DNA of 64,000 bases from Escherichia coli (GTDB lineage Bacteria; Pseudomonadota; Gammaproteobacteria; Enterobacterales; Enterobacteriaceae): the NCBI RefSeq assembly GCF_050920415.1, contig NZ_CP169309.1. One strand, 5' to 3'. Below the pieces are notes generated by a model. The model had not been told where the DNA came from, searched no databases, and saw only the letters and a program-made list of their open reading frames with translations. This document shows, in pieces, positions 30,584-56,323 of the stretch. Position 1 is the first letter of the stretch. Every line of letters starts with the position of its first letter. Made by a program: the position numbers and the translations under genes.

Positions 30584-30593
30584 TTATCCTTTG

Positions 30594-30623
30594 TGTCCGG
30601 CAAAAACATCCCTTCAGCCGGAG
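30594..30623 (+). promoter_or_regulatory. pyrC leader hairpin sequestering the Shine-Dalgarno (pyrimidine-dependent translational control)
   Basis: tccggc (30596-30601) pairs with gccgga (30617-30622), overlapping the GGAG Shine-Dalgarno upstream of the ATG at 30635. Confidence 0.65.
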
Positions 30624-30634
30624 CATAGAGATTA

Positions 30635-49291: not shown

Positions 49292-50045
49292 GTTGTCACC
49301 CTGGACCTGGTCGTACATTTAAGAAATTAAATCATTTCAACTTGGTTGTTAACGCAACCTGTATTTTGTTAACGCTGCGTTACGATGGAAAGTATGTCTG
49401 CGGAAATATTTTTAATAACTCACCCGCGCGTTGTATTTTTCTTTTTTTGTTCATACCAAAGTATTAAAACCCACGTAAATACGCTGTTATCTACGCAAAA
49501 AAATATTTTGTTTTCTTTTAAATTTCGGTTTTCCGCAATCAAAAATCACCAGACAGTCATTCTTCTTGCCCGTCGCTGATTGCTGCGATATGTCTTGCGC
49601 ACAAGCCGTGACAAACCTCGTCTTTTTGCAGTAAAAAATTGTCCACGGAGGTGTGGAGAAAAAACAAGAACGTTTTACATGACGAAAGGACTACACCGAA
49701 ATATTTTTTATATGCATTATTAGCAAGTTAGCACCATTTGTATGATTTTTTAAAATTGTGCAAGAAAAACCAAATGTACAACTTTTCTATCATTTCTAAA
49801 CTTAATAAAACCTTAAGATTAACATTTTAATATAACGAGTTACATTTAGTTACATGTTTAACACTTGATTTAAGATTTGTAATGGCTAGATTGAAATCAG
49901 ATGTAATCCATTAGTTTTATATTTTACCCATTTAGGGCTGATTTATTACTACACACAGCAGTGCAACATCTGTCAGTACTTCTGGTGCTTCTATTTTAGA
50001 GGCAGCTGTCAGGTGTGCGATCAATAAAAAAAGCGGGGTTTCATC
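49292..50045. promoter_or_regulatory. csgBAC / csgDEFG divergent intergenic control region including the csgD promoter and 5' UTR
   Basis: 754-bp AT-rich interval between divergent csgB and csgD; established binding region for OmpR, CpxR, IHF, H-NS, RstA and MlrA, and the csgD leader is an sRNA target. Confidence 0.75.
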
Positions 50046-55407: not shown

Positions 55408-55588
55408 CTACAAAGGCCACCAGCATAACAAATCCGTGGTCGGTGGCAAAAAAAGCAGATTTCGCTTATTAAAACTGCATATTGATTGAAGTTTGAATAA
55501 ACGCGCGATTTTTTAAAAAAGTTTGTTGACCTCAGGTCATGATTTCCCTAAATTAGCGCCCGTTCCAGCAAGACAGGAACGACAATTT

Positions 55589-55676
55589 GGTGAGGTGTCC
55601 GAGTGGCTGAAGGAGCACGCCTGGAAAGTGTGTATACGGCAACGTATCGGGGGTTCGAATCCCCCCCTCACCGCCA
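55589..55676 (+). tRNA. serX: tRNA-Ser (anticodon GGA)
   Basis: 88-nt cloverleaf: acceptor stem GGTGAGG/CCTCACC, long variable arm, T-loop GGTTCGAATCC, anticodon loop CTGGAAA, 3' GCCA. Confidence 0.93.
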
Positions 55677-56323
55677 TCTTTAAAGAAGAGCTCGTACGAA
55701 AGTACGGGCTTTTTTTTCGTATATTGCACACGCCGGGGGGATGAGAAGCCCCGACAGGGGTTCGACAACTGGCGACAGCCAGTTGGACAGACCGTGAACG
55801 CAGTGAGCGGGCTGCCCGCAGGGCGAGCGAAGCGAGTCAATCCCCCCCTCACCGCCATCTTTAAAGAAGAGCTCGTACGAAAGTACGGGCTTTTTTTTCG
55901 TATATTGCACACGCCGGGGGGATGAGAAGCCCCGACAGGGGTTCGACAACTGGCGACAGCCAGTTGGACAGACCGTGAACGCAGTGAGCGGGCTGCCCGC
56001 AGGGCGAGCGAAGCGAGTCAATCCCCCCCTCACCGCCATCTTTAAAGAAGAGCTCGTACGAAAGTACGGGCTTTTTTTTCGTATATTGCACACACCGGGG
56101 GGATGAGAAGCCCCGACAGGGGTTCGACAACTGGCGACAGCCAGTTGGACAGACCGTGAACGCAGTGAGCGGGCTGCCCGCAGGGCGAGCGAAGCGAGTC
56201 AATCCCCCCCTCACCGCCATCTTTAAAGAAGAGCTCGTACGAAGGTACGGGTTTTTTTTTTCGTATATTGCACACACCGGGGGATGAAAAGCCCCGACCG
56301 GGGTTCGACAACTGGCGACAAAC
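55658..56323 (+). repeat. Tandem array, about 3.6 copies of a 181-bp unit, starting inside the serX 3' end
   Basis: Units start at 55658, 55839, 56020 and 56201, each beginning with aatccccccctcaccgcca (the last 19 nt of serX) followed by a terminator hairpin and T-run; copies 1-2 identical, copy 3 has one substitution, the last partial copy is more diverged. Confidence 0.9.

Follow-up and report, generated by a model that had tools for sequence, protein, structure and literature searches.

What is a tandem array of tRNA 3' ends, each associated with a terminator-like hairpin, doing between two convergent genes? This question is raised by the segment downstream of the tRNA gene serX in the window, i.e. 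the whole stretch of 64 kb of Escherichia coli DNA analysed here. An earlier note, made from the sequence alone, had proposed either a scar of repeated integration and excision or a recombination-driven amplification of the serX flank.

Layout of the array between serX and dgcT

Tandem Repeats Finder returns one array, at 55658-56320, with a period of 181, 3.7 (3.67) copies, 98% matches, no indels and a score of 1268; no other large tandem repeat was found in the 64-kb window. The array begins within serX, the sole tRNA gene detected by ARAGORN in the window, and lies on the same strand (+) as the tRNA, i.e. in the position and orientation of a tRNA-linked repeat (TLR). The last 19 nucleotides of serX (55658-55676; AATCCCCCCCTCACCGCCA) are those repeated at the end of each unit. 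An exact search for this 19-mer gives 55658, 55839, 56020 and 56201, and no further occurrence in the 64-kb window; as expected for TLRs, the 3' ends of the units are identical to the serX tail at 19 of 19 nucleotides at the last three positions. Both searches confirm the 181-bp tandem described in the earlier note, and three near-perfect copies of this length do not arise by chance. The features of the locus are as follows, the units being counted from after one CCA to the next CCA.

55526-55554, + strand: sigma-70-like promoter (TTGACC-17-TAAATT) upstream of serX, from a scan
55589-55676, + strand: serX, tRNA-Ser(GGA) (ARAGORN; Rfam tRNA, 53.8 bits)
55677-55857, + strand: TLR unit 1
about 55682-55717, + strand: terminator hairpin of unit 1, between the AU-rich trailer and the RtT-like body
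55735-55742 / 55840-55847, + strand: closing stem of unit 1, enclosing three inner hairpins and followed by the 3' tail CUCACCGCCA
55858-56038, + strand: TLR unit 2, identical in sequence to unit 1
56039-56219, + strand: TLR unit 3, differing from units 1 and 2 by a single substitution
56220-56320, + strand: truncated TLR unit 4, with trailer, terminator hairpin with 10 T, 5' arm, hairpin 1 and half of hairpin 2
56324-57780, - strand: dgcT, convergent, encoding a GGDEF diguanylate cyclase and here broken up by a frameshift

The relations between the copies are those given in the earlier note. The single substitution of copy 3 is a G to A change at unit position 75, and the terminal copy is the most diverged: its 120 nucleotides (56201-56320) show 4 substitutions and 2 single-base indels relative to copy 3, and it retains only the first half of hairpin 2. 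Three nucleotides separate its end from the stop codon of dgcT (56324-56326). On the - strand, the hairpin of unit 4 is the first terminator-like site for dgcT transcription (scan site 56249-56236).

In the window dgcT consists of two ORFs on the - strand, 57244-57780 and 56324-57247. Relative to the intact 456-aa gene of the closest genome, one T of a T8 run and 3 nucleotides of a G run are missing, near 57263 and 57215; the gene is either a frameshifted pseudogene or the product of a homopolymer sequencing error. The other above-threshold Rfam matches in the window are ordinary ones, i.e. the rne 5' UTR element (8518-8854), SraB (6489-6657), ES056 (49899-49990) and the PyrC leader (30585-30634).

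Identity and copy number of the repeats

The Rfam family RtT (RF00391) matches each of the three full units over model positions 1-130, with E values of about 6e-6.

55721-55857, + strand: RtT match, 41.4 bits
55902-56038, + strand: RtT match, 41.4 bits
56083-56219, + strand: RtT match, 41.7 bits

The curated gathering score of RF00391 is 45 bits, and the window units are thus 3.3-3.6 bits below it. The serX units of K-12 reach 46.3 bits, pass the threshold and are annotated “RtT sRNA” in RefSeq, while those of the closest genome carry no annotation; a score just under the threshold explains why the units are unannotated in some genomes. Many RefSeq records show “RtT sRNA” one to three times right after tRNA-Ser and ghrA. 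The tyrT-tyrV units score 133-137 bits against the same model. This places the serX units in a distant subfamily at the border of RtT. They have the structure of this family, i.e. a closing stem made of a 5' purine run and a tRNA-derived 3' strand, with internal hairpins.

Between K-12 and the window the units are 98.9% identical, the period is 181 in both, and the order ghrA-serX-array is the same; this synteny and this identity make the array orthologous to a catalogued TLR locus, rsX1-4. We hold it very probable that the serX array is the rsX TLR array, i.e. the orthologue of K-12 rsX1-4 and a distant relative of the RtT RNA of the tyrT operon. It is an already catalogued element and not a new type of integration scar, a membership that the earlier note overlooked. 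The appropriate label for it is that of a known repeat family (TLR / RtT-like, rsX), not that of a candidate new element. Weak Rfam matches to sX4, Thr_leader and a plastid element were rejected as noise, being far below threshold and overlapping the tRNA or the terminator. The Rfam search of the array gave no match to a ribozyme family, and a hammerhead-like reading of GAUGAG..CGAC was also rejected: the conserved GAAA core is missing and CGAC stands in its place.

TLRs number 22 at ten K-12 loci, with one to five at each, and every one ends in 18-19 nucleotides of the upstream tRNA or rRNA (PMC8144298). That paper credits their first description to Egan and Landy in 1978 and their cataloguing to Rudd (1999, Res Microbiol 150:653). 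For the 178-bp tyrT-tyrV repeats, called rtT, Egan and Landy (1978) and Bosl and Kersten (1991) are the sources cited in PMC8144298 and PMC3318445. The TLRs rsX1-4 (serX) and rsW' (serW) are among the 22 deleted in one strain (strain table of PMC8144298). A stringent-response effect once claimed for rtT was retracted, and the TLRs, although known since 1978, are still without an established function (PMC8144298). Expression of RtT-annotated loci has been reported from Klebsiella RNA-seq data (PMC4147364).

A megablast of the region gave a match in 5,425 of 5,426 complete E. coli genomes. The 181-bp period is seen at the serX locus in thousands of them, hence the array is not an assembly artefact, a doubt that the earlier note had raised. 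The comparison of one unit with E. coli genomes suggested there has now been made: at least one near-complete unit is present in 3,359 of the 5,426 genomes, with 1-13 matching places per genome (median 2). Copy number was read in evenly spaced samples of 40 and 60 genomes out of the 5,426. Match spans at serX go from the truncated unit alone (0.44 or 0.67) up to 4.45 units, i.e. from 0 to at least 4 full units. SCU-485, which has no full unit (0.67 unit), shares with the window the junction at the dgcT stop, so that the states of the array differ by whole units. Laboratory sublines of K-12 differ by exactly one 181-bp unit: serX and ycdU are 735 bp apart in an MG1655 derivative, compared with 916 bp in BW25113, PG20180062 and g62.

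In each array the full copies all share the substitutions that separate the window from K-12. At one such site the terminal truncated copy of the window has the K-12 state (CGACC, not CGACA), which fits a weaker homogenisation at the edge of the array. The comparison of genomes thus shows that the array behaves as a variable-number tandem repeat with gain and loss of whole units and homogenisation within the array, presumably by unequal homologous recombination or slippage. The recombination-prone copy number anticipated in the earlier note is thus observed between E. coli strains and between K-12 sublines. Its mention of an invariant, already described repeat family holds for the description but not for the invariance. 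The array could serve as a typing marker, and it is liable to mislead short-read assembly. In E. coli SCPM-O-B-8794 the repeat interval that comes first after serX measures 106 bp and not about 181, corresponding to an internal deletion in the first unit.

Fold, conservation and possible roles of the unit

Each unit carries a 16-bp hairpin, AAAGAAGAGCUCGUAC-GAAA-GUACGGGCUUUUUUUU, resembling an intrinsic terminator in both directions, as well as the palindrome caactggc-gaca-gccagttg. Sequence and fold agree in this with the unit as first described, i.e. a tRNA 3' end, a terminator and palindromes. In the predicted fold of the RNA strand the order is AU-rich trailer, terminator hairpin, spacer, closing stem with three hairpins, and tail. 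The closing stem has 8 bp (GGGGGGAU / AUCCCCCC), its 3' strand being the tRNA-derived sequence, and the unpaired 3' tail is CUCACCGCCA. The minimum free energy of the unit is -80.7 kcal/mol (z = -4.9 relative to dinucleotide shuffles).

The promoter-like site at 55526-55554 is the only one on the + strand upstream of or inside the full units. At the threshold of the scan none was found within any full unit, and a model of independent transcripts was set aside on this basis. A second + strand match (56305-56334) extends from the truncated fourth unit into the 3' end of dgcT. A consensus terminator scan flagged the hairpins of the units on the - strand but not on the + strand, where the T run was probably absorbed by its stem extension; this miss was not counted as an absence of terminators.

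To survey conservation we scanned one genome per species with the pattern GRTGAGAA-N4-CGAC-N3-GGTTCGA, the core common to Tyr- and Ser-type units. At least 120 loci match. The core is located 60-73 nucleotides, or one or more periods further, after tRNA-Ser(GGA) or tRNA-Tyr(GTA) in Enterobacterales and after tRNA-Ser(GCT) in Pseudoalteromonas; among the matches listed, this placement holds for almost every locus with a callable tRNA. The units measure 165-184 bp (Ser) or 171-180 bp (Tyr), end with the last 19 nucleotides of the cognate tRNA and are present in one to four copies per locus. Ser(GGA)-type units occur in Citrobacter, Enterobacter, Kosakonia, Pluralibacter, Superficieibacter, E. 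albertii and others.

When 28 distinct Ser-type units, drawn from many genera, are aligned, the mean column identity is 76%, the core columns being invariant partly by ascertainment, since the loci were found with the core pattern. The RNAalifold consensus of these units recovers the terminator hairpin, the closing stem and the inner hairpins, with 97.9% of cells paired. Changes on both sides of a pair affect 15 of the 44 pairs; column shuffles give 5.6 +/- 1.4, and sliding the partners by 1-3 columns gives no more than 8. This cross-genus covariation argues for selection on the Ser-type units as RNA, and the distribution of the array indicates that it is old and conserved across Enterobacteriaceae. 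It is a modest addition to the old question of TLR function, not a discovery.

Direct reading of the sequences indicates that the stem of hairpin 1 follows the cognate T stem: CCUU/AAGG for Tyr, CCCC/GGGG for Ser(GGA) and CCCU/AGGG for Ser(GCT). In each of these three contexts the closing stem likewise has a 5' arm complementary to the 3' strand of its own tRNA. In Pseudoalteromonas, outside Enterobacterales, the RtT-like core after tRNA-Ser(GCT) has a hairpin-1 stem altered to fit its T stem. In several units of this genus the tRNA tail is no longer at the end, and one locus (L115) has an extra, shorter tandem of terminator-containing units.

The structured body of the unit thus comprises about 125 nucleotides: the 5' G-run pairs with the tRNA-derived C-run and closes a three-hairpin junction, and the 3' end is that of the tRNA, CCA included. 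How could such units become RNAs? In the scheme that we propose, the units, devoid of their own promoter, would be transcribed only when polymerase reads past the terminator that follows serX. Through the tRNA 3' end that they repeat, they would then undergo 3' processing by RNase E and exonucleases as in tRNA maturation, and this processing would release discrete TLR RNAs. Termination of convergent dgcT transcription is probably a further effect of the stacked hairpins. For the TLRs of rrn operons, read-through transcription has been reported and recognition of the repeat by RNase E has been proposed (PMC8144298). With a strong terminator after every CCA, transcripts may cover little of the array, and an RNA function may be weak or absent, given the retracted rtT claim and the fact that a strain deleted for the 22 TLRs could be built.

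A more specific role for the body of Ser- and Tyr-type TLRs would be that of a dedicated functional RNA mimicking the 3' half of a tRNA, i.e. a decoy or sponge for a factor acting on tRNA 3' ends. We regard it as unlikely. It is based on the closing helix, which tracks the 3' strand of the cognate tRNA, and on the match of hairpin 1 to the T stem. Purine-rich unpaired motifs, UGAGAA and GGGCGAG..CGAGUCA, are conserved between Tyr- and Ser(GGA)-type units, and a tandem G-A motif has been reported for RtT. If this role were true, the target could be a processing enzyme, a toxin, or a phage or island protein, and copy number would set the dose.

A somewhat less probable alternative is that the array acts at the level of DNA and transcription, as stacked bidirectional terminators insulating serX and dgcT, the rest of the unit being a passenger without RNA role. 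The hairpins stacked between the two genes, taken for terminators in the earlier note, are indeed terminator-like in both directions, with a - strand terminator-like site in each unit, and the genes are convergent. The terminator hairpin is moreover the helix richest in compensatory changes (5 of its 12 pairs) and is kept in every genus aligned. However, about 1 in 5 of the sampled genomes keep just the truncated unit, with a single hairpin beside dgcT; stacking is therefore dispensable. Insulation leaves aside the covariation and the conserved unpaired motifs of the unit body, and the tyrT version of the unit lacks an obvious terminator made of a hairpin plus a T run.

Integration at serX and comparison with known systems

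Repeated integration and excision by an integrase at serX, each cycle leaving the att core and flanking DNA of the element, would be a very improbable origin for the array, although one of its premises is correct. The last ~15 nucleotides of serX are a real att core, as the earlier note had supposed from the tRNA 3' end. In O157:H7 an island starts right after the CCA of serX, and in O111:H8 a gene for a tyrosine integrase adjoins “tccccctcaccgcca”, which is followed by 2.4 TLR units. However, these islands leave a repeat of only ~15 nucleotides, not 181 bp, with the array intact on the far side. A scar would have its repeats confined to the att core and come with an integrase element; what is found is a 181-bp unit with a structured body, whose non-tRNA part is homologous to the tyrT repeats and displays RNA-type covariation across genera. 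Arrays also exist without an integrase nearby: no integrase gene lies beside the array in the closest genome or in K-12. A query made of the 3' end of a unit fused to the island edge placed an O157-type island after a repeat copy in 0 of 5,426 genomes; among the matches listed, every island junction lay at a tRNA-Ser gene. This search covered the O157-type island family. Repeat copies as secondary attachment sites of islands were rejected on the same count. O111:H8 (L126 3330-3990) lacks the pga-dgcT region, and after the array come a DUF2726 gene and phoH.

Still less credible is a recent amplification, private to this strain, of an ordinary serX flank belonging to no family. The 99-100% identity of copies 1-3 and the greater divergence of the terminal copy speak for it, but a high identity within the array fits homogenisation. 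The cross-genus loci, with units of 165-184 bp and the same tail and core after tRNA-Ser(GGA), refute it. Furthermore, about 61 nucleotides of the unit are missing from the genomes that have no full unit, so the array is not a plain duplication of that flank. Taken together, the ~15-nucleotide island repeats, the homology to tyrT, the covariation and the missing 61 nucleotides argue against integration scars as well as against a recent amplification private to this strain.

Equally hard to credit is that the repeats encode protein, as small tpr-like peptides (a tpr peptide gene is annotated in the tyrT repeats) or as long - strand ORFs: each unit has a 43-aa GTG ORF on the + strand, and on the - strand the array is crossed by ORFs of 119-157 aa, but the + strand ORF spans the terminator hairpin, the cross-genus alignment shows indels of 1-2 nucleotides in the ORFs with substitutions that follow base-pairing and not codons, and long ORFs are an expected by-product of a tandem repeat; coding potential was rejected on the hairpin crossing and on indels that are not multiples of three.

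We return to the array as the rsX TLRs, and compare it with the systems that it resembles. The islands at serX/serW in O157:H7 and O111:H8 use the same serX 3'-terminal sequence as the array, and those at serX have one att copy at their far end, beside the array. Integrase att repeats differ from the units by their size (~15 nucleotides versus 181 bp), by their disposition, as two copies around an integrase-bearing island and not head-to-tail, and by having no structured RNA body.

The TLRs rrA, rrB and rrF are located between terminators T1 and T2 of rrnA, rrnB and rrnD (PMC8144298). Like the serX units they end with nucleotides of the upstream stable RNA (18 in their case), a proposed cleavage signal for RNase E. 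Unlike the serX array, they are single copy, have a 5S rRNA tail and contain GGA motifs that bind CsrA and Hfq (PMC8144298). The 19 TLRs of tRNA operons, including rsX, score below 0.01 in a predictor of CsrA binding (PMC8144298).

The RtT repeats of tyrT and the serX units are both in tandem directly 3' of a class II tRNA gene, have the last 19 nucleotides of the tRNA at their end and a 5' arm complementary to the cognate tRNA tail, and share the core GGAUGAGAA..CGAC..GGUUCGA..GCCCG.AGGGCGAG..CGAGU.A. They differ in score (133-137 versus 41-46 bits), in period (178 versus 181) and in stems that vary with the tRNA (CCUU/AAGG in tyrT units, CCCC/GGGG in serX units). The tyrT spacer has no obvious intrinsic-terminator hairpin, unlike that of the serX units.

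The rsX1-4 array of K-12 shares with the window the serX locus, the 181-bp period, the 19-nucleotide tRNA tail, the terminator hairpin and the body. The two arrays differ in copy number, 3.67 in the window versus 3.44 (MG1655 type) or 4.44 (BW25113 type) in K-12, and in their distal junction. The truncated last unit of the window lies directly against dgcT; that of K-12 breaks off earlier, and ycdU, a truncated ACP S-malonyltransferase pseudogene, IS3 and dgcT come after it. The K-12 cut falls inside the spacer (…cacacaccggg / tgccccc…) and not at the tRNA-tail sequence; the segment with ycdU, the pseudogene and IS3 starts at this cut, and IS3 replaces the 3' end of dgcT (L001 5160-5295 and 7849-7890). 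Finally, the array-wide substitutions of the window relative to K-12 lower the Rfam score from 46.3 to 41.4-41.7 bits.
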